DNA of 64,000 nucleotides from Dehalococcoidales bacterium (GTDB taxonomy: Bacteria > Chloroflexota > Dehalococcoidia > Dehalococcoidales > Fen-1064). Of this stretch, positions 3,186 through 38,083 are shown one piece after another. Numbering within the stretch: the first letter of the stretch is position 1; each line of letters starts with the position of its first letter. The translations under genes and the position numbers were made by a program. The notes under the pieces were generated by a model. The model saw only the letters and a program-made list of their open reading frames with translations. It did not search any database and was not told the DNA's origin. Where the stretch lies: positions 9,071 to 73,070 of the forward strand of contig DASWLM010000021.1 in assembly GCA_036396095.1 (NCBI GenBank), given 5' to 3'.

Positions 3186-3224
3186 AAGCTATTAGCTTTC
3201 AGCAATCAGCTATCAGTTCTGGAA

Positions 3225-3280
3225 TATACTACTATCACCACACTGACGGAAGGTCTAGATTTACTCGTAGAAAATTTTGG
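3225..3280. repeat. Degenerate third copy of the promoter-bearing intergenic module (see 4172-4204 and 5448-5505)
   Basis: GGAAGGTCTAGATTTACTCGTAGAAAATT here matches GGAAGGTCTGGATTTACTCGTCGGAAAATT at 5473-5502. The -10 equivalent has decayed. Confidence 0.6.
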
Positions 3281-3334
3281 TTAGGCATGGAATCTGAATC
3301 TGGAATACCAGTCAGTTACTGCCTTAATGACCTG

Positions 3335-4132
3335 CTACCTAACCTCTACTCCCCTTTCCCTGAGTTGAGGAATCGAGACATTGAGCGACTCCTCATTCAA
3401 GGGATTTCCCTCAAGAATCCAGAGGGTACGTAGTTTAGTCAGGGAAATTAATGGCGAGATGTCACTTACCTGGTTGTTAAAGAGCCTTAATGTAATTAGA
3501 TTAGTTAATGAACCCAATGCTTGAATGTCTGTTATCTGGTTGGTTTCAGGACTGCCCATGAGTTCAAGAATGGTTAAGTTGGTTAATGAACCCAGAGGTG
3601 ATACATCGGTTATTCGGTTAAAACTGAGGGAAAGGTATTGAAGATTGGTTAGCGAGGCTAGCGGTGACAAGTCACTAACCTTGTTTGCCATAAGGATGAT
3701 TGAGCTTAGGTTAACCAACGAAGCTAGTGATGAGATGTCGCTGATTTCGTTACGACCAAGACCGAGGTATGTGAGGTTAGTGAGTGATGCTAACGGTGAT
3801 ATGTCCTTTATTTGGTTACCTGTAAGTTCAAGGTCTTCTAGTTTAGTCAGGTTAGCAAGTGGTGAAAGGTCACTAATCTCGTTGCCACCAAGATAAAGTG
3901 AAGTCAGGTTAGAACATTTCTCCAGACCTTTGAGGTTGGTGATATTTCTCTCATTTGCAATAAGTTGGTTAAGTCCCTCTAGGTCTGAGGGATATATTGA
4001 ACCTTCAGGCTTGTTGATAGCTTCTCTGATGGCTGCTTCAAGATTCGGGTCAGGGAACTTGACTGCATTTGAACCACAGCTAACAACAGTCGCCATAATA
4101 GCAACTATGAGAATGCCTATTATTACCTTCAT
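3335..4132 (-). CDS. Leucine-rich-repeat (internalin-like) lipoprotein
   Basis: Signal peptide with lipobox (VVSC). About eight 22-residue repeats of the form LxxLxxLxLxxNxIxDISPLxx. Confidence 0.8.
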   Translation of the reverse strand: MKVIIGILIVAIMATVVSCGSNAVKFPDPNLEAAIREAINKPEGSIYPSDLEGLNQLIANERNITNLKGLEKCSNLTSLYLGGNEISDLSPLANLTKLEDLELTGNQIKDISPLASLTNLTYLGLGRNEISDISSLASLVNLSSIILMANKVSDLSPLASLTNLQYLSLSFNRITDVSPLGSLTNLTILELMGSPETNQITDIQALGSLTNLITLRLFNNQVSDISPLISLTKLRTLWILEGNPLNEESLNVSIPQLRERGVEVR

Positions 4133-4171
4133 TTCAACCTTCCACTTTCAAGTGACTGGAGTCTGTTCCAG

Positions 4172-4200
4172 ATTGTACCACCATAACTGCTTTGTAAGAA
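4172..4200 (-). promoter_or_regulatory. Putative extended -10 promoter of the LRR gene, inside the repeat module
   Basis: The minus strand reads TTCTTA-17 nt-TACAAT with TGg immediately upstream of the -10. It lies 40 nt upstream of the ATG at 4132. The 20-mer TACCACCATAACTGCTTTGT (4176-4195) is identical to 5452-5471. Confidence 0.45.
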
Positions 4201-4273
4201 GGTCAACTGGAATAGGCTTATTATCTCCGGTTATTGTGATAAAAAAGAAGTTTTTAAGTTGGTAAGTATCCAA

Positions 4274-5362
4274 TTAAGCGGATTGGGTAAGTATACTGTC
4301 ATCATTTGTTACCCCTTTTACCCACTCTAGAGCATCAATAGTGATGAAATTCTCGTCAATTAGTTGTGGAAGTGTCTTCCTGTATACATCTTTCACTTTC
4401 TCGTCTCGATTGACGATATGAATTGATGAACCAGGCAATCCAGAGATTGTTTCACTGAAGAGATAGGTAGCTGCAATGTCTGTAATCGGTAATGAATAAC
4501 CGATAAAAGTTACTTTGTCTGCCTGTTTCAAAGCCGTATAAGCTGATGACCAGATAAGTCGAATTATTGGTTGCTCGGTCAATTCACCTTTCACAAGGAC
4601 TGGTGGAATTAAAAATGGATTTGTTGCTATATGACTAGGAATTTTTTCTAATATTTCTTCGTCGATTGGAATCCCATTTTGGTTAGAATAAGGTAGCCAA
4701 GACTCGTAGTGTACGATGGAGTCCAAGGTGAATGGTTTCGTATGCCCAAATCTTGGGAACCAATTTGTGGAACCATGGAGTTTCAATAGCATCATAGAAG
4801 TCTTATCCATTGAGATTATGGTATCTAAAATACAAGAGACCGCAGGGCGACAAAAGAAGCCATAACCTCCATCGGGATGCCAATATGGTACAGGCTGCAA
4901 AGGAATTTGTATTACTCTATTAACGTCAAATAATGCTTTGTCAAACAAATCATCGTGGTTAAATGAGATACATGTTACTCGATTGTCAATACAAAATTTA
5001 GCAAATTTAGTCAATTCCCCAAGAAATACCTTTTGTGTTAGAGCTTCTTTTATTCTGGATAGATAAACTTTTTCAAGGTCAGTATACAATAGACTTAATT
5101 CAGTCTTGTTTTCAATGTCGTGAGGCATACCTGTATGAAGACGAGTGAGTAACCTTTCAATGTTGATTTTATTATCTTGTCTACCACGTTTTTCAGACTC
5201 CAGAATACTCCTAATAAGAGGGAAATTATTAAACTTTTCCAACAAAGTATCAACCCCGTAGTCATCTACCATCAATGGTGCACTCGGACAAAATGCATGG
5301 GTAAAACCTGCACCAAGGACAAATACTTGTCGTGACGGGGTTATTCTCATGGGTAAAGTCAT
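4274..5362 (-). CDS. Stand-alone SIR2-like (SIR2_2-type) protein
   Basis: N-terminal VFVLGAGFTHAF (GAGxS/T-type NAD-binding loop), LLKLHGSTNW (conserved His motif) and VTFIGYSLPITD. Very AT-rich: one line counted by hand at about 28% GC. Confidence 0.6.
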   Translation of the reverse strand: MTLPMRITPSRQVFVLGAGFTHAFCPSAPLMVDDYGVDTLLEKFNNFPLIRSILESEKRGRQDNKINIERLLTRLHTGMPHDIENKTELSLLYTDLEKVYLSRIKEALTQKVFLGELTKFAKFCIDNRVTCISFNHDDLFDKALFDVNRVIQIPLQPVPYWHPDGGYGFFCRPAVSCILDTIISMDKTSMMLLKLHGSTNWFPRFGHTKPFTLDSIVHYESWLPYSNQNGIPIDEEILEKIPSHIATNPFLIPPVLVKGELTEQPIIRLIWSSAYTALKQADKVTFIGYSLPITDIAATYLFSETISGLPGSSIHIVNRDEKVKDVYRKTLPQLIDENFITIDALEWVKGVTNDDSILTQSA

Positions 5363-5424
5363 GGTGAATAATTTCCTTCTGCAAGGGAGAATTTAGGGTC
5401 TCTATCATCATCCCAGATGCTCAT
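5359..5424 (-). CDS. Candidate 21-codon upstream ORF (MSIWDDDRDPKFSLAEGNYSP) coupled to the SIR2-like gene
   Basis: AGGAG lies 6 nt upstream of its ATG (5424-5422). Its TGA overlaps the SIR2-like ATG as ATGA. It is too short for the ORF track. Confidence 0.3.
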   Translation of the reverse strand: MSIWDDDRDPKFSLAEGNYSP

Positions 5425-5447
5425 TATGTACTCCTGAACTTTCAGGC

Positions 5448-5476
5448 ATTATACCACCATAACTGCTTTGTGGGAA
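5448..5476 (-). promoter_or_regulatory. Putative extended -10 promoter of the uORF/SIR2-like transcript, inside the repeat module
   Basis: The minus strand reads TTCCCA-17 nt-TATAAT, preceded by TGg. Confidence 0.45.
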
Positions 5477-5635
5477 GGTCTGGATTTACTCGTCGGAAAA
5501 TTCCAGTTCTTTAACGTGAATTATTAACTAGCCATGTACAATCTTATCAATGATATGGAAAGTTGAGCCAACCAGAAATTGCTTAAAATGTTAAGCAGGG
5601 AATTGATGTCACATGCTATAATAATGAGCGTACCT

Positions 5636-5709
5636 TGCCGCGTTGTGTAGGGGTAGCACAAGGGACTTTGGATCCTTTAGCCCAGGTTCGAATCCTGGCG
5701 CGGCAGCCA
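5636..5709 (+). tRNA. tRNA-Gln (anticodon TTG)
   Basis: Acceptor TGCCGCG/CGCGGCA with discriminator G, anticodon loop CTTTGGA, T-loop GGTTCGAATCC, encoded CCA. Confidence 0.9.
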
Positions 5710-5957
5710 GTTTGGAAGTTTTCCGAACCTTCTTATTGAGAAGAAGGGACTGATTCCACCGCTTTAAGTTTCATTTTCAGAGCAAGTTGTACAAAAGACA
5801 GAACTTTTTCCTTAACTTTCGCCATACCTTAATCGACTAGCCCGAATCCCCGCGGCTCTACCAAATCAACACTCTAATATTGATACAACGAAAAGTCCTT
5901 TATAAATGGGCTTTTCAGCATTTTTAGGCTAAAATGACCATCGCTAAAAGGTCGATT

Positions 5958-5987
5958 TTGCACCTTTGCTTACCCCTTTGCTAAAAT
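5958..5987 (+). promoter_or_regulatory. Putative promoter of the leader-ORF/GNAT transcript
   Basis: TTGCAC-18 nt-TAAAAT, about 40 nt upstream of the leader ORF. Confidence 0.35.
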
Positions 5988-6028
5988 ACATGCACCCGGG
6001 GTGGGCTTTTTTGAAAGGGGGTTATCAC

Positions 6029-6085
6029 ATGAAAAATACAGTTAGAGTTATTTCAAAACATAATAGGAGGGTGACTATACTTTAG
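6029..6085 (+). CDS. Candidate 18-codon leader peptide (MKNTVRVISKHNRRVTIL)
   Basis: The ATG is preceded by AAGGGGG at 7-nt spacing. It contains tandem AGG AGG codons. The stop TAG at 6083-6085 lies inside the hairpin region. Confidence 0.3.
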   Translation: MKNTVRVISKHNRRVTIL

Positions 6086-6104
6086 CCCTCCTGCAAAACA
6101 GGAG
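6065..6104 (+). promoter_or_regulatory. Two mutually exclusive hairpins; the second sequesters the GNAT Shine-Dalgarno (translational attenuator candidate)
   Basis: Hairpin 1 is AGGAGGG (6065-6071) / CCCTCCT (6086-6092). Hairpin 2 is CTCCTG (6088-6093) / CAGGAG (6099-6104). The AGGAG at 6100-6104 lies 9 nt upstream of the TTG start at 6114. Confidence 0.4.
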
Positions 6105-6113
6105 AAAAACACT

Positions 6114-7109
6114 TTGGATAAGCCCCTAATAATTAAACCTTTGGACACAGGCTATTTTGATACCGTAGTTGAGTTAGCTTTAGAAAACTATTTGTTGGAA
6201 AGACATTCAGCAAGAGGTTTGTGTGAGAGAGCCAACAAAAGTTATTTCAGCAAACAGCTTGAAGAATTATTCTCAAAAGGAACAGGCAGAATGGCGTTTG
6301 AGGACAACACGCTCGTTGGGTTCTTAGCTTTTGGCGAGATATTTACTATTAATAAATCAGGTGCGAAAGGAGCAGCTTCACCTTTATGGGGATACGGCAT
6401 AAGACATAATGAGCGCGGAGAGATTATTGGAAGGCTGTTTCAAGATATAGCTGCCGAGCTCTGCGAGAATTTTGCTCAAGGCATGAATGTCAGTGTATAC
6501 GCTCACGATACGGAGGTGCTATGGACGTATATAATGAGTGCATTTTATATGGAACATACGGGTGTTGTGAGAGATGTATCTTCGCCCATAGAAGCGGAAA
6601 TGTCGGATAAGTATTCGTTCAGAGAGGTCGGAAAAAAGGAACTCATTCACCATAAGCACGAAATTGTCGAACTGTATAGGGGTCTTATAAATCATTTACG
6701 CGTGAGTCCGGTATTCTACCATTGTCGGCAATTTCTTCCGATTGAAAATCGCTTCGATGATTTCCTTAAAAACGATATGCGGGTTTTTGCTGTATTTGAT
6801 AGCAACAGACTGGTTGGCATGATAGATTCCGAACCGATAAACTGGGGATTTACTGTAGATGATACGGAAGCGCTTAGTATGGGTGATATTTTCATAGAAC
6901 CTGCTTATCGGGGGAGCGGCATAGCTATTGCTTTGTTAAAGTTTGCCAACGACGAGTTGAAAAGCAATGGTGTAAAACGATTGTTCGTAATGCATGGAAC
7001 GATAAATCCTAGCGCACGCGGATTTTGGGATAAATACTTCACGAATTATTCCTATACAATGTCGAGATTGATTGACCCTGATATGTTGGGAACAATTAAA
7101 CCTGTATAA
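6114..7109 (+). CDS. GNAT-family N-acetyltransferase (two-lobed, 331 aa)
   Basis: C-terminal acetyl-CoA motif IFIEPAYRGSGIAIALLKFANDEL. TTG start. Substrate unknown. Confidence 0.65.
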   Translation: MDKPLIIKPLDTGYFDTVVELALENYLLERHSARGLCERANKSYFSKQLEELFSKGTGRMAFEDNTLVGFLAFGEIFTINKSGAKGAASPLWGYGIRHNERGEIIGRLFQDIAAELCENFAQGMNVSVYAHDTEVLWTYIMSAFYMEHTGVVRDVSSPIEAEMSDKYSFREVGKKELIHHKHEIVELYRGLINHLRVSPVFYHCRQFLPIENRFDDFLKNDMRVFAVFDSNRLVGMIDSEPINWGFTVDDTEALSMGDIFIEPAYRGSGIAIALLKFANDELKSNGVKRLFVMHGTINPSARGFWDKYFTNYSYTMSRLIDPDMLGTIKPV

Positions 7110-7174
7110 ATCTGCAACAGCTAAAACTTAATCTGCTTATTACATGTTAGCAATTTGTTAGCAAAAACAGAATA

Positions 7175-7203
7175 GCCCTCGAAATCTTAACGAAATCGAG
7201 GGC
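7175..7203 (+). terminator. Putative terminator hairpin downstream of the GNAT gene
   Basis: 8-bp stem GCCCTCGA/TCGAGGGC with a 13-nt loop, followed by TATTT, which is a weak U-tract. Confidence 0.4.
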
Positions 7204-7347
7204 TATTTAGCTTCAAAAATTGGTAGTGGGAGTTAGCTTCGAACCAATAACCTCAGCATCGTGGAACGACAGCTAAATCTCCTCCCTACAAATTCTTCTG
7301 TTTGACCTTAATTGGTTCCTTTCGCCTGTAGTATCTATTGCTACGTG

Positions 7348-8622
7348 CTACTTAGCCGGATTCATTACGCGCCCGATAAACAGGATAGCGCCGGTCTTAA
7401 TGTCACGGATGAGGAAAACAAAGGGCTGGTCGAGAGTGACAACGACCGGTTCCGCCGGCATGGAAGTTGTCCCCACGATAACAGCAGTGGCGGCGGCGGC
7501 TTCAGTGCCCTCTTCATCTACGGAAACAAATGCCTTATGTATAACATCGTCAATGTGCAAATCGCTCTCGGTGGACATGCCCGTAAAATCAGCGTTAATC
7601 TCAAAGGGCTCTACCATCCCCATGCTCCGCAAAGTCTCTTTAAGCCCGAACTGCGATTCGAATTCAAATTTAGGCATGGTGAGTGCAACCCTTGTGTACC
7701 TTAAGTTATCAAGAATCGCTTTGACCGTTGGCAATGTTAATGTATTTTCGAAATCGCTGAAATTACCGGTCGTATTTGTCAGGATGACCATCGAAAGCTC
7801 ATTGCCATCGTAGGGTAATTCCACTGCCAGGGTATTCCCCGATTTCGCATAACCGAAGTTCTCAGTCGCTCTCATCAATGGCACGGACACATCTGTACCT
7901 TCTACCAGGTGGAAAGGACCGTTAGCAGTCGCCGATTTTGTGAAAGGGGACTGCCATGCCGCATTGAAGTAGATGGCGTTGGTCAGCACCAGCCGAGTTA
8001 GCGGTGTGATACTGCCTTCGGGAATCAAATCCTTGATGCGCCCTTCTGTCTGGTCGCTCACCCATTTGTTGATTGTCTCTCTGGAAGCATTCGGGTCCTT
8101 AATGAAATCGAGCACCCGCAAGCCAGCCCCGTAGTTTTCGGCAAGCAAGTCAAGAAAGGTTGATAGGAACTTGTAGTCCTTCTGTCCCCAGATGGCGTTG
8201 ACGATATTGAGCCGGAATCCCTTATCATCTTTGCCTTTGGCGCCTTCCCCGCGCTTGCTTAGTTCTAATGCCAGGCTGTTAAACGCCGGATGCAAAGCAT
8301 TTTGCGCTAGCCGGTAATGAAGGGTATCCGCCATCTGCTTTGCAGTTTCGCCGCGGGCGCCGGCATAAGTCATCGCCAGAGCCAGTGAGATGCTGTGTGG
8401 TGAATAGAACAGGTTGCCATCCTCTTTCTTTAGCACCTGATAAAGGTCGAAGGCGAATTCGCTGTTGCCGTTGACCAGCGTGGTCGCATCGGAAGTATTG
8501 ACCACCGGTGAGGTGATGCGGGCTTTATCAGATTTCACCTCTCCCGCCGATGCAGGTTGAGAACAGCCGCTCAGCCCGACTATCATGATAGCCGTGAGCA
8601 GTAAGAACAATAGCTTTTTCAT
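7348..8622 (-). CDS. Serpin-family protease inhibitor, predicted lipoprotein
   Basis: Reactive-centre-loop hinge EEGTEAAAATAV. Serpin-like core (NAIYFNAAW, FHLVEG..VPLM). Signal peptide with lipobox LSGC. I prefer the ATG at 8622, which has GGAGG upstream. Confidence 0.85.
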   Translation of the reverse strand: MKKLLFLLLTAIMIVGLSGCSQPASAGEVKSDKARITSPVVNTSDATTLVNGNSEFAFDLYQVLKKEDGNLFYSPHSISLALAMTYAGARGETAKQMADTLHYRLAQNALHPAFNSLALELSKRGEGAKGKDDKGFRLNIVNAIWGQKDYKFLSTFLDLLAENYGAGLRVLDFIKDPNASRETINKWVSDQTEGRIKDLIPEGSITPLTRLVLTNAIYFNAAWQSPFTKSATANGPFHLVEGTDVSVPLMRATENFGYAKSGNTLAVELPYDGNELSMVILTNTTGNFSDFENTLTLPTVKAILDNLRYTRVALTMPKFEFESQFGLKETLRSMGMVEPFEINADFTGMSTESDLHIDDVIHKAFVSVDEEGTEAAAATAVIVGTTSMPAEPVVVTLDQPFVFLIRDIKTGAILFIGRVMNPAK

Positions 8623-8731
8623 TTTGCCTCCTCTTTGGATAAGCATGTCTGCGTATAATATAACGGTGAAATCTGTAAAAGAGTTAGGTTATCGTTTGAG
8701 CGCCTTATGTACAAACCCAGCGCCTCTAATA

Positions 8732-32422: not shown

Positions 32423-33040
32423 TCAGAGAAGCTTTTGAGCAGTCCTAGGTAGCCCTAAAATTTCACCTAAAAAAGAGAAATCCCCTTTTTGGTCAGCAAT
32501 ACTTCTATAAATGGAGGCTCGAGAGCCAGGATGATACATTGGCATAACCGTATATTTACCCCATTTTGCTAGTTTTCGTACCTGTCGCAGTTCGATTTGG
32601 TGTTCGTTGATAATGTGAAGTGACCGCAGAGCGCATTGACCTAATGGAACTATGAATTCAGGTTCAATAATATCGATTAATATACTTAAATGGAGAGAAC
32701 AGTTCTGGATTTCTGTTTTGTTTGGTGGCGAATTATTACCCTTTTCATCCCTCGGGTTACATAGTACGGCATTTGTGATAAATACTTGTTGTCTTGCTAG
32801 CCCAGCGAATTGAAGTAGCCGTTCGAAATTTGCCCCTGCCTTGTCGCCAAAGAAGGGAATGCCAGTCCGGTCAGCACCTAAGCGTCCAGGCGCTTCGCCG
32901 ATGAACATCACTTTAGAGTCAATGTTACCATTTTTTTCGCTTAGCACCTTGGTTCGTCCTTGCATACGCGAACACAAATTGCATCTATTAACATTTTCAA
33001 TAAGCAGGTCGAATTTCCGCCTTTTATCCGTATGAAGCAT
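32423..33040 (-). CDS. Family-4-like uracil-DNA glycosylase superfamily protein with Fe-S cysteines
   Basis: Motif A GEAPGRLGADRTGIPFFGDKAG, ITNAVLCNP, motif B YHPGSRA, and cysteines CNLC...C...C. I prefer the ATG at 33040, with GGAGG 5 nt upstream; the listed TTG at 33052 is less likely. Confidence 0.75.
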   Translation of the reverse strand: MLHTDKRRKFDLLIENVNRCNLCSRMQGRTKVLSEKNGNIDSKVMFIGEAPGRLGADRTGIPFFGDKAGANFERLLQFAGLARQQVFITNAVLCNPRDEKGNNSPPNKTEIQNCSLHLSILIDIIEPEFIVPLGQCALRSLHIINEHQIELRQVRKLAKWGKYTVMPMYHPGSRASIYRSIADQKGDFSFLGEILGLPRTAQKLL

Positions 33041-33041
33041 C

Positions 33042-34118
33042 TTAACCTCCAACTAGATTTCTTAAACAAAGCGGATCAGCTCTTTTGACTATGTCCCCAT
33101 CTTCCATAGACTCTTGTTCAATAACCTTCTGAGCAAGACATCCTGATTTACATTTCTCTAAATATGAGCAGTTAGAACATGGTTTTTCAAAAGGTGTTGT
33201 TAGATAACGTCTAATTGTTTTTAAATATTCTGATTGTTCCCAACATTCCCTCAAGGAGTGTTTATGAATATTATGGTAAGGATCATTCAACCCAATTTCG
33301 CTAGGCTCAGTATTTTTAAAGGCATCGCATGGATATATGTTACCGTTTGGTCCAATACATAGAGTGTTACTAGCTGCGTTGCAGTCGATCTTTTCATCTA
33401 AAATAAGAATATTATAAGGAGACCCTAAGCGAATATCAACGTTATAATGTCCCCTACATTCTAAGATTAAACTTCTCAATTCCAATGTTTCTTTATGCAT
33501 CAACATTTCATGGCTCTTTTTTAGAATTATACCCCGCCCTTGAGGAACAAATCGGAGAATGCTAACTTTATGAATACCCAAATTTTTGGCAAGTTCTATT
33601 AATCTATATAAATGTTTATAGTTTAGTTTGAGCGGAACAAAATGTATTTCTCTCTTTATATGATTTTTCCCCAACTCTTGTATTACTGCTAATGTTTTAT
33701 CAAAACTCCCTGCTTTTCTTGTTATTCTGTCATGCTGAATCTTTATGGGCGAATAAAGACTAAAAATAACCCTGCTTAAACCATCTTTGGTTAGGGCTAT
33801 AATTTCTTTTGATCCATCACCAGTTAGATTTATCCCCGTAGAGTATATTGAGCTCTGTAAACCATGTGCTTTACATGCTTTTACGGCATGTGCGATCCAA
33901 GGCCATAATAAAGGTTCGCCTCCAGAAAATACGATAGATTTTACGTGTAATTCTGCTGCTTGGCTGATGAGGGACAATACTGCCTTGCGGGTTAACTGAA
34001 TAGGATTACCGGAAGAAGCATCACTGGAACAATGTATGCATGAAAGAGGACAATTCTTTGTCAACTCAATTTTAACTTCTTCTAAATCACCTTCCTTAGG
34101 ATACTCATACATTCTCAT
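33042..34118 (-). CDS. Radical SAM enzyme with C-terminal SPASM/twitch domain
   Basis: CPLSCIHC (CX3CX2C) near the N-terminus. GPNGNIYPCD and CSNCSYLEKCKSGC (CX2CX5CX3C) in the C-terminal domain. Confidence 0.85.
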   Translation of the reverse strand: MRMYEYPKEGDLEEVKIELTKNCPLSCIHCSSDASSGNPIQLTRKAVLSLISQAAELHVKSIVFSGGEPLLWPWIAHAVKACKAHGLQSSIYSTGINLTGDGSKEIIALTKDGLSRVIFSLYSPIKIQHDRITRKAGSFDKTLAVIQELGKNHIKREIHFVPLKLNYKHLYRLIELAKNLGIHKVSILRFVPQGRGIILKKSHEMLMHKETLELRSLILECRGHYNVDIRLGSPYNILILDEKIDCNAASNTLCIGPNGNIYPCDAFKNTEPSEIGLNDPYHNIHKHSLRECWEQSEYLKTIRRYLTTPFEKPCSNCSYLEKCKSGCLAQKVIEQESMEDGDIVKRADPLCLRNLVGG

Positions 34119-34132
34119 GATTATTTTGGATT

Positions 34133-34756
34133 TTAACCTATCTGTTTGTGCAAACTAAATTCCAATGGCATGCCCTGCACTCCCCACTCACCACGATGAT
34201 CAAGCCAAGATTCAAACGCCATAGCGAAATCATGAGATAAGATACGATGTCCCCGGCTAATGCAGCAGAGATCTTCACTAGTCGGTCGGTATGGACGAAA
34301 GCGTTTTGGAATTGGTATAGGGTTATTCCCGAAGTAAACAAAATGTCGGGAAATAAGCAAACGGTTCACCTTTGTGTCGTGATCGGTATTCCTTGAATTT
34401 GGTTGACCTGTGTCAAGGCTATGATGCGAATCAGCTTGAACCCATTGGTAATTGTATCGATAATAGATGTTATCGCCATAAAGTTGCTTTAGGCTTCCGT
34501 TCATTAATGGCCGCTTACCTAGGAATCTAGGATCATTCCAATACGAGTCGAACTCCAAGACCTCATCTACTTTCATAGCGTAGATAAGATACCCCGCAAG
34601 ATTGTATTTTGTTTTTGCTCCAGTTCCGACTACCCAATCACCAACGGAAGCACGTGAACGAATTTGCGGTTTACACGTTGCTAATGTGCAGTATCCGTTG
34701 AAAGGATTCGGTGCGAATCCATAGTCACGCGCAACAATATAGGTGTATAGTTTCAT
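34133..34756 (-). CDS. Nmad2-like (nucleotide-modification-associated domain 2) protein, tentative
   Basis: N-terminus KLYTYIVARDYGFAPNPFNGYCTLATCKPQIR matches my memory of Nmad2-family proteins. The ATG at 34756 shares TAATG with the upstream stop. Confidence 0.45.
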   Translation of the reverse strand: MKLYTYIVARDYGFAPNPFNGYCTLATCKPQIRSRASVGDWVVGTGAKTKYNLAGYLIYAMKVDEVLEFDSYWNDPRFLGKRPLMNGSLKQLYGDNIYYRYNYQWVQADSHHSLDTGQPNSRNTDHDTKVNRLLISRHFVYFGNNPIPIPKRFRPYRPTSEDLCCISRGHRILSHDFAMAFESWLDHRGEWGVQGMPLEFSLHKQIG

Positions 34757-35235
34757 TAGCAACTAAACCTCCTAGGAGCCCATGTAGGATTTCTCGCTTC
34801 GCCGGTCTGCGGATCATCCCATACCACAATATTCCCATTGATTGCATCGACCACGCGGTCGCCCTGCCAGCCGACAATAGCTGCGTCACCACATCTCTCG
34901 AGCTCTTCAGGGATATCAGCATCCGCAGCTCCTCGTGCAAATACACCAATCACCCTTTTACCAAGCTGGTTAGCATATTGAATTTCCCAATTCACATACG
35001 GAGCCTGACCTGTATCGTGTGTGATCAGAACTACTACTGTACTTGCCCACTCGATTCTGGGCGCAAGGATCTGATATTTAATATACTGTTCGTTCTCGGC
35101 ATCGTTGGGTTTGTCGCTGGTGATCGAGCTGTCCCTGACCTCCATGCCGGCGTGCTCAATTAGCTGTTTTAATTCCGGTAGCAACGCGTCATCCTCGTGC
35201 ACATGAGAAATAAAGACGTTCTTCTTATCTACCAT
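34756..35235 (-). CDS. TIR-like domain protein (DUF1863/ThsB-type)
   Basis: NVFISHVHEDD N-terminal strand motif and YVNWEIQYA (conserved Glu). GGAGG lies 7 nt upstream of the ATG. Confidence 0.65.
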   Translation of the reverse strand: MVDKKNVFISHVHEDDALLPELKQLIEHAGMEVRDSSITSDKPNDAENEQYIKYQILAPRIEWASTVVVLITHDTGQAPYVNWEIQYANQLGKRVIGVFARGAADADIPEELERCGDAAIVGWQGDRVVDAINGNIVVWDDPQTGEARNPTWAPRRFSC

Positions 35236-35291
35236 CCCGTTTCCTCCGTCTATGAGGTTTCTTGGCTAAGGTCTAAAAACACGAGTGACGC

Positions 35292-35813
35292 TTAATCATC
35301 GCAACGAGCGCCACAGAGCTTCTTCAGTTCTGACTGGTATTGTTCTAAGTTATGCTGAAGTTCCTTAAATGCTTTCTCAAATTCGTTCAGCTTTGGCCAT
35401 TCTTTCTCATACTCAACTCTGCTCTTTTGCGCAGTATTATATTTGCTTTCATGAAGTTGGAGTTCATAGTGCCATTTGGTGAGGAAAGGGCGTAATCCTT
35501 TGTTTAGAAACTCGATAGCCAATGGTGCAAGAGAATTTCTACCGTGGGCGATAGAAGGTCCCGATTGGCTCAGAATCCTTCGTGTTTCTCCAAATAAAGC
35601 ATAAATAGAATTCAAGGCTTCTCTGATGGAACCATATTCAGGATCAACTGGTTGTACAGGGACTCTTGTGGATATTTCTATATATAACGACCATGCGGCT
35701 CTTATCTCGGAATCCTCGGGTACAAAGGTTGCACTCCCAGCATATGGGACGTTCATCGTGACACTCTCTAATTTTACTCCGGGATGTCCGCTTCTTTTGA
35801 AAGGATTCTTCAC
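35292..35813 (-). CDS. Hypothetical 173-aa, probably helical protein
   Basis: GTG start. I recognise no motif. It is sandwiched between the two TIR-like genes on the same strand. Confidence 0.5.
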   Translation of the reverse strand: MKNPFKRSGHPGVKLESVTMNVPYAGSATFVPEDSEIRAAWSLYIEISTRVPVQPVDPEYGSIREALNSIYALFGETRRILSQSGPSIAHGRNSLAPLAIEFLNKGLRPFLTKWHYELQLHESKYNTAQKSRVEYEKEWPKLNEFEKAFKELQHNLEQYQSELKKLCGARCDD

Positions 35814-35881
35814 GTCCTTTGGACCTCTTTATCCCTTAATATAAGGGCATTTTTACTTAGGGATTAAATGATAAGGATTTT

Positions 35882-36349
35882 CTATTTGTTTGGATCTTGC
35901 TCTATCCATTTATCAATCGCATCTGGATCCCAACTCATGTACATGGTTGATCGACCATTCAATAGAACATCGGGAATCCTAGCATTATCACACCCCTTCA
36001 ATCTCATACCTCGAATACGTTTCCAAGTTTCCCCTGGCAATCTGCTTTTCATTTCATAAAAGGCGTCAACTTCCCACTGAACCCAATCGCTTTGCCAAGT
36101 ATTCTGACCCACGAGAACAACCAACTTGGAGGCGCGCTGAAATTTATCGATAATTTCATCCCTTATGGGTTTAGACCTAGCGTCATCTGGCGGATACTTG
36201 ATAATTTTGCCCGTCCAATCCCTTACAGGTTCTTTCAGTGAATGGTCATGGAAATCAAGGGGATGATTAGGATTTTTAATGAGTGACGTGAATCCATTTA
36301 CTTGGTCAGCGTCATCATGGTCAAAACTGACAAAAACATTCGTAGCCAT
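35882..36349 (-). CDS. TIR-like domain protein (DUF1863/ThsB-type)
   Basis: NVFVSFDHDDAD, KLVVLVGQNTWQSDWVQWEVD (WxxWE glutamate motif). Confidence 0.7.
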   Translation of the reverse strand: MATNVFVSFDHDDADQVNGFTSLIKNPNHPLDFHDHSLKEPVRDWTGKIIKYPPDDARSKPIRDEIIDKFQRASKLVVLVGQNTWQSDWVQWEVDAFYEMKSRLPGETWKRIRGMRLKGCDNARIPDVLLNGRSTMYMSWDPDAIDKWIEQDPNK

Positions 36350-36394
36350 TTTGGGCTTCTCCCGAAAAATTGTCTTGCCGAAGGAGTTGTCCCT

Positions 36395-36423
36395 AGTTTA
36401 GTAGTTAAATTAAAATTTGTCAA
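36395..36423 (-). promoter_or_regulatory. Putative promoter of the TIR-like/Nmad2/rSAM/UDG cassette
   Basis: The minus strand reads TTGACA-17 nt-TAAACT, with the -10 about 45 nt upstream of the ATG at 36349. Confidence 0.5.
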
Positions 36424-36505: not shown

Positions 36506-38083
36506 CTACTCCCGAATCACTTTGCTTTTATGGGCGATGAAGTCCGTCAGAAGATAGCGTCCCAGTGTTTGTGCGCTGGTGAAAAACACTCGTCCCCGGT
36601 TAATCTTTGCCAGTCCGTTGATAAACTCCTCCGTAAAATCAGCCCCTTCGAAAATGAAAGCGTTGATAGTAATGCCATCTTCGGTGCAGTTTCTCACTTC
36701 GGCGAGCGTCATCTGACGGGTATGTTGGGTGGGGGGATATTGAGAGAAAACAGCGCCGTTTTCAATATGGGCAGTGGGTTCGCCATCCGTAATCAGGATA
36801 ATATGTTTATTTGCACTCGCTTCCCTGGCAAGCAACCGCCGCGCCAACCACAACCCGTGCTGGATGTTGGTGTGGCGGTCGCGGTTATCCCAGCCCATGG
36901 TGGGTAGGTCATCCGGCGCAATCTGCCGTGCGTAAGTAGAGAAACCGACTACATACAGGCTATCTGTGGGGAAGCTTGTCCTGATAAGCTCGGTGAGAGC
37001 CAGCGCTACCCGCTTCGCCGATTGAAAATTGCCGTGCCGCGGCATAGAACGACTTAGGTCAAGCAGGAGAACAGTCGCCGCGCGTGTCATCGGCTCAGTT
37101 TTCACCGTTTCGAAATCGGCCGGCGTGAGAGTGAGAGGCGGGTGCTGTGGTTCGCGAAGCAAAGAGTTCATGACAGTATTCAAGAGATGTAGATTGAAAT
37201 CATCGCCGAATTCATATTTTTTGGTCTCCTCGAGGCGCATGCCGCCGACACTGCTACGGTTAAGGTTATGATTGCCCGCACTGTCTCTCCTCAACTGCGC
37301 GTAAATTTCCTCCAGCGCTTTTTGCCCGATTCTGCGGATGGCACGTGGCGTCAGTTCGTGCCCCTTATCTGTCTCCCGAATATAACCGGCATTGAGCAAA
37401 AGAGAGTCAAGACAGCGAAGCCGTTCCATCCCGGCTAATGCTTCCTCACCTAGCACCTCCCCGACAAGATTCGGGTCAAGCCCATCCAGTGAATGACGAC
37501 GCTGATTCTGTTTCAATTGGGCTTCGAGCCTATCCATTCTCTGCAGAAGAACCGGTAACTTCAGAGCATCGTTGGGTGTAAGTTGCTCTTTATTATTCTG
37601 TGATTCCGCACCTTTCTCCATACCCATGTCAGTGGGTTTATTGCCACTACCCCCCAGTGATTCAAAGGAATTGTTTTGCAGAGCGGACAGCAGGCGTTCC
37701 AGTTCCCGGCGGGCATCCGTGTTGGAAAAACGGTGCTGTTTCAGCATCTCCAGTTGCCGGTCGATGTCTTCTGGCAGGTCAGTCAGTTGTTCCTTATCAA
37801 TGATTTTTTCCAGTTGACGACGGATAGCACGAGTAACCGAGGAAAAATCAAAGCGGTTTTGAAGCTCTTGTTTCTTTTGCTCCAGGCGCTGGTAGAGTTC
37901 ACGGTTGCCGGCGAGGTGTCTGCCTTCACTGTCCTCGATGCCCTCTCTCTGCATTTTCCATAACGCAGTTGTCAGGTCACCGTAAGCAGTTAGGTTGCGT
38001 TCAAGCTCAGTAAGCAGCCTGTCTTTATCGAGGTCGGGGAAATCCTGCCGACCATCCCAAGTGGTATAGCGATAGATACCCAT
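36506..38083 (-). CDS. von Willebrand factor A (VWA) domain protein with N-terminal coiled-coil region
   Basis: MIDAS-type VLLLDLSRSM motif and a C-terminal VWA fold pattern (IILITDGEPTAH). Confidence 0.8.
   Translation of the reverse strand: MGIYRYTTWDGRQDFPDLDKDRLLTELERNLTAYGDLTTALWKMQREGIEDSEGRHLAGNRELYQRLEQKKQELQNRFDFSSVTRAIRRQLEKIIDKEQLTDLPEDIDRQLEMLKQHRFSNTDARRELERLLSALQNNSFESLGGSGNKPTDMGMEKGAESQNNKEQLTPNDALKLPVLLQRMDRLEAQLKQNQRRHSLDGLDPNLVGEVLGEEALAGMERLRCLDSLLLNAGYIRETDKGHELTPRAIRRIGQKALEEIYAQLRRDSAGNHNLNRSSVGGMRLEETKKYEFGDDFNLHLLNTVMNSLLREPQHPPLTLTPADFETVKTEPMTRAATVLLLDLSRSMPRHGNFQSAKRVALALTELIRTSFPTDSLYVVGFSTYARQIAPDDLPTMGWDNRDRHTNIQHGLWLARRLLAREASANKHIILITDGEPTAHIENGAVFSQYPPTQHTRQMTLAEVRNCTEDGITINAFIFEGADFTEEFINGLAKINRGRVFFTSAQTLGRYLLTDFIAHKSKVIRE

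Follow-up and report, generated by a model that had tools for sequence, protein, structure and literature searches.

Among the 42 predicted Escherichia coli systems validated by DeWeirdt, Mahoney & Laub (Science 2026) is DS-4 (working name NTTI), which encodes a thymidylate-synthase-like (TS-like) protein, a deoxynucleoside monophosphate (dNMP) kinase, HMUDK_hel, a TIR protein and Nmad2, and for which protection against phage was shown without a mechanism (PMC13092281). The same paper credits earlier predictions to Burroughs et al. 2015, and its figures 6F and S12 present predicted, unvalidated systems with MazG/MazG-C, NMAD and uracil-DNA glycosylase (UDG) genes (PMC13092281). Systems of the TIR-Nmad2 kind are in this sense already known, through earlier predictions and through the validation of a single member in 2026. 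Here we analyse a stretch of 64,000 nt from a contig of a Dehalococcoidales bacterium (hereafter the window), in which six minus-strand genes at positions 32423-36349 form a cassette encoding two TIR proteins (TIR-A and TIR-B), a 173-aa protein, Nmad2, a radical SAM enzyme (rSAM) and a UDG.

The original prediction made from this sequence was a conflict cassette that matched no named system. Conserved synteny and kinship with DS-4 now support the view that these genes belong together in a defence cassette, and the same kinship makes the second statement outdated: TIR-B and Nmad2 are orthologous to the products of genes 4-5 of DS-4 (38% identity, E 6e-30, and 43% identity, E 6e-55, respectively). 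In both loci the TIR gene is directly followed by the Nmad2 gene, within a multi-gene operon that also carries nucleotide-directed accessory enzymes. These enzymes differ, however. The TS-like protein, dNMP kinase and HMUDK_hel of DS-4 are found nowhere within the 64-kb window, where rSAM and UDG occupy the corresponding slots, whereas DS-4 is devoid of the 173-aa protein, of a TIR-SLOG protein and of a second TIR. The kinship is one of family membership only.

Thoeris offers a further comparison. A 2025 survey of TIR signalling, in its accessible part, distinguishes Thoeris types I-XI and cites a type III with several TIRs and a SLOG effector (bioRxiv 10.64898/2025.12.03.692087). In the accessible part of its main text, none of the terms for accessory genes of the TIR-Nmad2 kind occurs (nucleotide modification, radical SAM, glycosylase, MazG, thymidylate, PUA). 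Like Thoeris, the window has a ThsB-family TIR with a conserved Glu (PADLOC ThsB1, PDLC00418, 2e-53); in most TIR-Nmad2 relatives a partner protein contains SLOG, a feature shared with ThsA, and there are several TIRs per locus, as in type III. Unlike Thoeris, the cassette lacks an effector of the SIR2, Macro or caspase-like type, or another cognate effector with a signal-binding domain such as SIR2-SLOG, and the family combines an obligatory Nmad2 partner with nucleotide-modifying genes. Pfam and PADLOC scans agree with the original prediction in finding no SIR2, SLOG or Macro domain in the six proteins, and neither a methyltransferase nor a nuclease is present. Used as a query, the TIR-SLOG protein of one relative (L004) had no match in the 64-kb window; it was the sole SLOG-containing query, and SIR2 and Macro were not searched window-wide.

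Full-text literature searches returned no mechanistic paper on Nmad2, on the base hypermodification protein or on a combination of TIR, radical SAM and UDG, Burroughs et al. 2015 and van den Berg et al. 2024 (type III Thoeris) being outside their coverage. Within the searchable literature we found no description of the configuration of rSAM, UDG and 173-aa protein, of the slot grammar set out below, or of a stand-alone triad of TS-like, rSAM and UDG genes, with or without Panacea.

An invariant TIR-Nmad2 core

All six predicted open reading frames (ORFs) are present in the ORF listing, and profile hidden Markov model and PADLOC searches upheld each of the five domain calls made for them (ThsB_TIR twice, Nmad2, Radical_SAM with SPASM, and UDG), leaving the 173-aa protein unmatched. 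The core of the cassette is formed by TIR-B, a ThsB-type TIR of 159 aa (34756-35235; PF08937, 7.1e-19), and Nmad2 (34133-34756, ORF to 34756/62; PF18753, 2.7e-67), which has 207 aa counted from the ATG overlapping the TIR-B stop. Relatives of Nmad2 were collected by scanning one genome per species; 80 loci from many phyla were fetched and annotated with phmmer, and loci from metagenome contigs were added. Slot and pair counts given below refer to the resulting 84 non-redundant Nmad2 loci. At least 572 species, spread over many phyla, encode a relative of Nmad2, and its homologues form 1995 clusters at 90% identity, many of them 60-80% identical to the window protein.

In 82 of the 84 loci, the gene immediately preceding Nmad2 encodes a TIR-B orthologue of about 160 aa, and the two genes usually overlap. 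The window has the same arrangement, a ThsB-type TIR gene immediately upstream of a co-oriented PF18753 gene, as does DS-4. In a metagenome-assembled genome (MAG) of Fermentibacteria, a single 384-aa ORF (L018, 7509-8663) spans the TIR and Nmad2 regions; either the core pair is naturally fused there, or the assembly contains a frameshift. TIR and Nmad2 are an invariant pair, translationally coupled and, it seems, occasionally fused. The original prediction had paired Nmad2 with rSAM; this was mistaken, as Nmad2 goes with the TIR and rSAM goes with UDG.

These counts bear on the idea that the cassette is a juxtaposition of independent neighbours, which we consider quite unlikely. It can be divided in two ways. 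The first, a Thoeris-like TIR/173-aa/TIR unit standing beside a separate Nmad2-rSAM-UDG unit, is excluded by the TIR-B/Nmad2 adjacency, by the overlap of the two genes and by the apparent L018 fusion. The second, a TIR-Nmad2 system next to an autonomous rSAM-UDG pair, is weighed with the slots and with the stand-alone loci below.

Both core proteins are well conserved at particular positions. The Glu of the TIR-B W83-E84 motif, corresponding to the Thoeris-type catalytic Glu, is kept in 98% of orthologues. At its C-terminus (34756-34773 in the window), TIR-B carries a motif, [KR]-R-[YFH]-x-C followed by zero or one residue, identified across 84 orthologues, which also occurs in the E. coli DS-4 TIR and is kept where the gene does not overlap Nmad2. 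Nearly all orthologues have this Cys at the very end or one residue before it. In Nmad2, about 50 positions are nearly invariant, among them those of GFAPNPF, C-x4-C and DSHHS; the protein has no sequence relative in the PDB. The top Foldseek matches of its predicted model, all weak (E 0.05-1), are mostly PUA-like (ASCH, EVE/THYN1, PH1033, McrB-N, YTH), and the protein may adopt a PUA/ASCH-like fold.

Three slots with mutually exclusive fillers

Around the core pair, the 84 loci reveal three slots, each with fillers that exclude one another. In slot 1, a TIR_2 plus SLOG-cluster-2 protein of about 680 aa is present in 44 loci and a homologue of the 173-aa protein in 26, never both together. Slot 2 holds MazG_C (52 loci), a TS-like protein (12) or rSAM (7), with no pairwise overlap. 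Slot 3 holds HMUDK_hel (53 loci) or a UDG-superfamily protein (19), again with no overlap; 15 of these 19 proteins are divergent and always accompany MazG_C, while the other four are family-4-like and always accompany rSAM. In the window, the 173-aa protein (with TIR-A) takes the place of TIR-SLOG, rSAM that of MazG_C or the TS-like protein, and the Fe-S UDG that of HMUDK_hel. Its configuration is accordingly a 173-aa protein, TIR-B/Nmad2, rSAM and a family-4 UDG, plus a second TIR.

Other genes recur across the family: DCD-like genes in seven loci, a dNMP or thymidylate kinase in five and Nmad3 in one. Relatives with rSAM may also carry extra genes, seen at L010:6798-7676, L046:4834-5451, L080:9007-9657 and L061:347-952 and 3204-3704; these comprise Nmad3 replacing UDG, dCTP-deaminase-like genes and a thymidylate kinase, while a gene for an 8xMP membrane protein may precede the TIR.

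The closest relatives of the cassette contain a five-gene unit, 173-aa protein-TIR-Nmad2-rSAM-UDG, without TIR-A; the six-gene unit originally proposed was in this respect overstated. Homologues of the cassette genes are syntenic elsewhere, both for the core pair and for the five-gene unit, which is found in four unrelated contexts: next to Lon-like/TspO genes (L001-3), GmrSD (L104-106) and MerR/DUF4007/AAA_16 genes (L107-109), and in the window. This synteny shows an arrangement far beyond chance, and the cassette is a real, horizontally moving conserved unit. The defence-gene neighbours of its relatives include type I restriction-modification (RM) with GmrSD; GmrSD; and RM/Schlafen genes, the last in at least 14 loci.

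The slots also decide largely on the second way of dividing the cassette. In Nmad2 loci, rSAM never occurs with MazG_C or a TS-like gene, and the UDG-like gene never with HMUDK_hel; because of these exclusivities, we take rSAM-UDG to fill defined slots of a larger system. The 14-nt gap between Nmad2 and rSAM and a gene order kept in four contexts likewise argue for one operon. On the side of independent neighbours, TIR-A is dispensable in relatives, and the rSAM-UDG pair is able to live apart from TIR and Nmad2.

A stand-alone TS-like-rSAM-UDG triad

Six further loci (L089/90, L091/92, L093, L094, L095 and L097) encode an rSAM 45-75% identical to that of the window, in the absence of both TIR and Nmad2. 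All six (L089:5234-8200, L091:5415-8150, L093:5219-8194, L094:5256-8020, L095:5219-8182, L097:5219-8201) have the same order: a protein of about 250 aa, then rSAM, then a UDG of 331-374 aa. In four of these loci, a SocA/Panacea antitoxin domain forms part of the UDG protein as a fusion. The ~250-aa protein is probably thymidylate-synthase-like, since four of five members give weak PF00303 matches and an hhalign comparison of the family with the DS-4-type TS-like family aligns 214 columns, the P-C catalytic motif among them, at a probability of 71% and an E of 3.7e-5. A profile search of the PDB with this family found nothing. Some triads lie among CBASS-like, HEPN or methyltransferase genes.

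It is these loci that speak most directly for an autonomous rSAM-UDG pair. Taken together with the slot exclusivities, they describe a portable pair, which either joins a TS-like gene or plugs into a TIR-Nmad2 system. We regard the triad itself as a candidate for a separate system, so far undescribed.

A large unnamed domain family and an optional TIR in slot 1

The 173-aa protein (35292-35813) has no match among Pfam, NCBIfam or PADLOC models. Structure prediction was one of the checks initially suggested for it; an AlphaFold2 (AF2) model with a pLDDT of 85 shows a beta-hairpin followed by a four-helix bundle, and Foldseek returned no significant PDB fold match for it. A profile search of 1.84 billion representatives places the protein in a large unnamed family, with 2053 clusters (50% identity) at E<=1e-3 and 1257 at E<=1e-10. 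Its domain occurs alone, as two to four tandem copies, or fused to other domains. Fusion proteins, drawn from the set P0291-P0439 and from the collected loci, join it to TIR (P0301, P0341), SLOG cluster 2 (P0403), a calcineurin-like phosphoesterase (P0380), patatin (L081, L047) and BTAD/TPR (P0333).

Residues E46, R50, S69, F74, R78, L103, N104, R108 and P109 are invariant in this family, and W114 is found in 92% of members. An Rx6H motif, R108-x6-H115, with a nearly invariant His, lies in the middle of helix 3 and is reminiscent of HEPN. No HEPN Pfam match was obtained in 32 members at E<=1, and HEPN-MNT matches of the model in Foldseek have a probability of 0.14-0.18.

TIR-A (35882-36349; PF08937, 3.9e-18), a ThsB-type TIR of 155 aa, is 27% identical to TIR-B. 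It is an optional add-on: missing from the closest five-gene relatives, it has counterparts in the form of a second ThsB-type TIR in 32 of the 84 loci, and its true orthologues adjoin TIR-SLOG genes in L058 and L061. The fusions of the 173-aa domain to TIR support a functional link between TIR-A and the 173-aa protein.

A radical SAM/SPASM enzyme and a family-4-like glycosylase in slots 2 and 3

The slot 2 protein (33042-34118; 358 aa; PF04055, 2.6e-16, and PF13186, 7.1e-07) is a radical SAM/SPASM enzyme, with the CX3CX2C motif C23/C27/C30 (CPLSCIHC) and a C-terminal SPASM domain that scores 29.9 against a PF13186 cut-off of 21.5 and conserves C246, C264, C314, C317, C323, C327 and C351. CPLSCIHC and the SPASM cysteines are invariant across aligned relatives, and the subfamily comprises at least 120 clusters. 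The closest solved structures are PqqE and the nucleoside-modifying BlsE.

The slot 3 protein (32423-33040, ORF to 33040/52; 205 aa from its ATG; PF03167, 7e-28) resembles Fe-S family-4 UDGs. Its best solved relative is the Thermus thermophilus family-4 enzyme 1ui0 (2.5e-24), to which the motifs GEAPG and YHPG and four cysteines (C20/C23/C94/C114) align; GEAPG, T-N, Y-H(-P) and the four Cys are invariant in 10 rSAM-linked UDGs. Scores nonetheless stay below the curated cut-offs (TIGR00758, 96.4 vs 125.3; NF040953, 105.1 vs 250), and the protein is best classed as a divergent family-4 subfamily. Because the motifs are kept and the alignment with a family-4 UDG holds, we predict an active uracil-type glycosylase, which would flip bases in DNA.

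Two described combinations invite comparison. In rSAM_link_UDG/UdgX (TIGR03916/TIGR03914), a radical SAM gene is likewise linked to a UDG-superfamily gene, but the window UDG has GEAPG and is nearer to classic family 4. The pair is indeed distinct, as originally proposed: UDG scores 74.9 with the UdgX model against a cut-off of 189.95, and TIGR03916 is not among the best 25 of 76 rSAM matches. Prokaryotic viperins (pVip) are also radical SAM enzymes in a defence context, and rSAM could similarly act on a nucleotide; it shares with them the generic radical SAM core only. The expectation that rSAM is not of the viperin type was borne out by a score of 49 bits against the NF038283 cut-off of 180 and by the presence of SPASM; PADLOC pVip models cover its N-terminal radical SAM core only. 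To our knowledge, viperins have no SPASM domain.

A housekeeping or biosynthetic cluster, in which a SPASM peptide or cofactor maturase and an ordinary repair UDG would happen to sit with unrelated TIR-like proteins, is very improbable. It would account for the named NCBIfam matches of rSAM (NirJ2, PqqE, AhbD and peptide maturases) and for the closeness of UDG to repair enzymes. All family scores are however far under their cut-offs, NirJ2, the best for rSAM, reaching 99.6 where 500 is required, and no precursor-peptide gene was identified in the cassette. The sporadic distribution, AT-richness and defence-island neighbours of the system, and the strict linkage of its genes to TIR-Nmad2 or TS-like genes, also argue against such a cluster. 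A role of rSAM as maturase of ribosomally synthesized peptides or cofactors was rejected, no context supporting it.

A probable uracil-type base and the hypermodification alternative

UDG and HMUDK_hel interchange in slot 3, and TS-like, DCD-like and thymidylate-kinase genes recur across the family; we therefore consider a uracil-type base (U or a 5-substituted U) to be the probable common currency of these systems. Similar chemistry is known from phages, whose thymidine hypermodification enzymes include a dUMP hydroxymethylase, 5-HMUDK, aGPT-Pplase/AADT and an rSAM isomerase (PMC8989533). The likeness lies in TS-like, HMUDK-related and rSAM enzymes acting on 5-substituted uracil, with a precedent for a radical SAM enzyme working on a DNA base (PMC8989533). 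The phage pathways are however phage-borne and involve a P-loop kinase, AADT and PLP enzymes, whereas the window cassette is cellular, and its rSAM is of the SPASM type, not SPL-like, and coupled to TIRs. A phage-borne pathway was rejected: Nmad2 has no match in 50,697 phage records and only six loci in 2.9 million viral contigs, in which rSAM has none. The cassette genes are cellular rather than viral.

In a cellular variant of this idea, the host's own chromosome would receive a modified pyrimidine, installed or exchanged by rSAM, UDG and Nmad2 for epigenetic purposes or self-marking, and the TIRs would act as nucleotide N-glycosidases or base-exchange enzymes instead of serving immune signalling. 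The thymidine hypermodification tool-kit does include the kinds of accessory gene seen in the family (TS-like, HMUDK_hel, MazG_C, dNMP kinase, Nmad3, DCD-like) (PMC8989533), and HMUDK_hel proteins bear the NCBI name 'putative DNA base hypermodification protein'. The predicted base-flipping by UDG in DNA and the resemblance of the Nmad2 model to modified-base readers would fit as well. We nevertheless judge self-DNA hypermodification unlikely. Neither the cassette nor DS-4 includes a nuclease or other discriminator; TIR-SLOG, or a slot fused to an effector (patatin, TIR, metallophosphatase), is typical of abortive infection rather than of a modification pathway; and DS-4 cloned alone protects E. 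coli. Moreover, the Glu of NAD-cleaving-type TIRs is conserved, and the genes are almost missing from viruses, where such pathways occur.

Operon layout, composition and surroundings of the cassette

The tight junctions reported for the cassette are real: from TIR-A downwards, gaps of 68, 56 and 14 nt, and, in minus-strand reading, a TAATG overlap between the TIR-B stop and the Nmad2 start. The rSAM/UDG junction, GGAGGTTAAGATG, is also as described, its Shine-Dalgarno sequence being formed by the last two rSAM Gly codons, with 1 nt between stop and ATG. Gene spacing and synteny are what argues for co-transcription; promoter and terminator scans for a single transcript did no better than chance. 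A putative promoter-like site, TTGACA-17-TAAACT (36395-36423, minus strand), lies 5' of the first gene and matches the consensus at 10 of 12 positions. It had been held to be the only strong promoter, a claim that fails, as the best sigma-70-like match of the region, TTGATA-17-TATAAT (11/12; 33439-33411, minus strand), sits inside the AT-rich rSAM gene. The latter could be an internal promoter for UDG, or a mere effect of AT-richness. Promoter-like sites are not above chance overall (15 vs 12.2 +/- 4.1 in shuffles).

The AT-richness of the cassette was confirmed: its GC content is 41.4%, whereas the remainder of the window has 47.7%, and it lies about 2.6 standard deviations below that of same-size windows; among its genes, rSAM is lowest at 35.7%, and TIR-B has 49.4%. 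The dip is not unique, however, since a patch of 40.0% is found elsewhere in the window. No flanking direct repeats were found at the cassette. A Dehalococcoidales MAG is the recorded source of proteins identical to its Nmad2, 173-aa protein and rSAM.

The next gene upstream of the cassette (36506-38083) has a host-like GC content, and its product of 525 aa begins with a long charged region and carries a VWA domain at the C-terminus; the gene is missing from relatives and gives no sign of belonging to the cassette. The second low-GC patch (~3400-7300) contains a leucine-rich-repeat protein (3335-4132), a 362-aa protein without Pfam match (4274-5362) and a GNAT-domain protein (6114-7109), and is adjoined by a bacterial serpin (7348-8646). 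The region 3335-8646 may be another acquired island.

Discussion

We favour, with somewhat better than even confidence, the view that the cassette belongs to the TIR-Nmad2 family and defends against phage by means of TIR activity and a uracil-directed module. Its horizontal acquisition, and its membership of a family that includes E. coli DS-4, are part of this best explanation. Several lines of evidence converge on it: the DS-4 phenotype, the conservation of the core pair, slot exclusivity, the TIR Glu, the UDG motifs, the four different flanks, defence neighbours, slot 1 fusions, the PUA-like matches of Nmad2, AT-richness, and near-absence from viruses.

Other observations weigh against an anti-phage system of this kind. 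In the accessible part of the DS-4 data, the effect on lambda is weak, about 0.9 log10 with small plaques in one quantitative plaque-assay row (PMC13092281), and phage protection in the family was assayed for DS-4 alone, not for a member with rSAM and UDG (PMC13092281). The flanks in the window are metabolic genes (ADP-forming acyl-CoA-synthetase-like, VWA protein, 3-hydroxyacyl-CoA dehydrogenase) and not a defence island, and PADLOC has no model for Nmad2, UDG or the 173-aa protein. No catalytic domain can be recognised in the standalone 173-aa protein; the fold matches of Nmad2 are weak (best E 0.047, TM 0.3-0.45, from an AF2 model of pLDDT 74); the sensor and effector roles in the cassette are assignments that we infer; and the TIR, instead of synthesising a signal, could act as a nucleotide N-glycosidase.

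Within the anti-phage explanation, the following sequence of events can be imagined. The slot 2 enzyme, here rSAM, would make or alter a uracil-type pyrimidine nucleotide, and the resulting base would enter, or be read from, newly made (phage) DNA. The slot 3 protein, here a UDG with intact catalytic motifs, would then engage the uracil-type base in DNA. Nmad2, as a putative PUA/ASCH-like base-binding module, would read the base or nucleotide and couple this event to the TIR, which would consume NAD+ or produce a signal derived from ADP-ribose (ADPR). Growth arrest would finally be executed by the slot 1 output: in the window the 173-aa protein with TIR-A, and elsewhere TIR-SLOG, in most relatives, or the 173-aa domain fused to patatin, TIR or phosphoesterase. 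We place much less confidence, well below even, in this particular order of steps. The two readings initially offered, nucleotide signalling and DNA base modification, are each compatible with part of this picture, and neither is shown.

A more speculative scheme, to which we give little credence, is that the TIR-Nmad2 pair uses the modified or excised uracil-type base delivered by swappable enzymes (here rSAM and UDG) as a second substrate. In one version, base exchange by the TIR would build a new ADPR-nucleobase immune signal; in another, the base would prime the TIR covalently at its conserved terminal Cys. Nucleobase-protein conjugation has been reported in type IV CBASS, a parallel to covalent priming of the TIR. 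Were the second-substrate scheme true, the DNA uracil content of an infecting phage would be linked directly to TIR signalling.

Whatever the order of its steps, the favoured anti-phage system concerns more than one locus: TIR-Nmad2 systems are present in hundreds of species from many phyla, and one member has been shown to stop phage. The slot grammar turns what was a "nucleotide-modification neighbourhood" into testable statements. It predicts that UDG and HMUDK_hel perform equivalent jobs on uracil-type bases; that rSAM, the TS-like enzyme and MazG_C yield equivalent products; and that a large unnamed helical domain, with more than 2000 clusters, substitutes for TIR-SLOG. Once understood, the system could bring to light nucleotide chemistry new to radical SAM enzymes, show that base excision takes part in bacterial immunity and perhaps uncover a new product of TIR enzymes.

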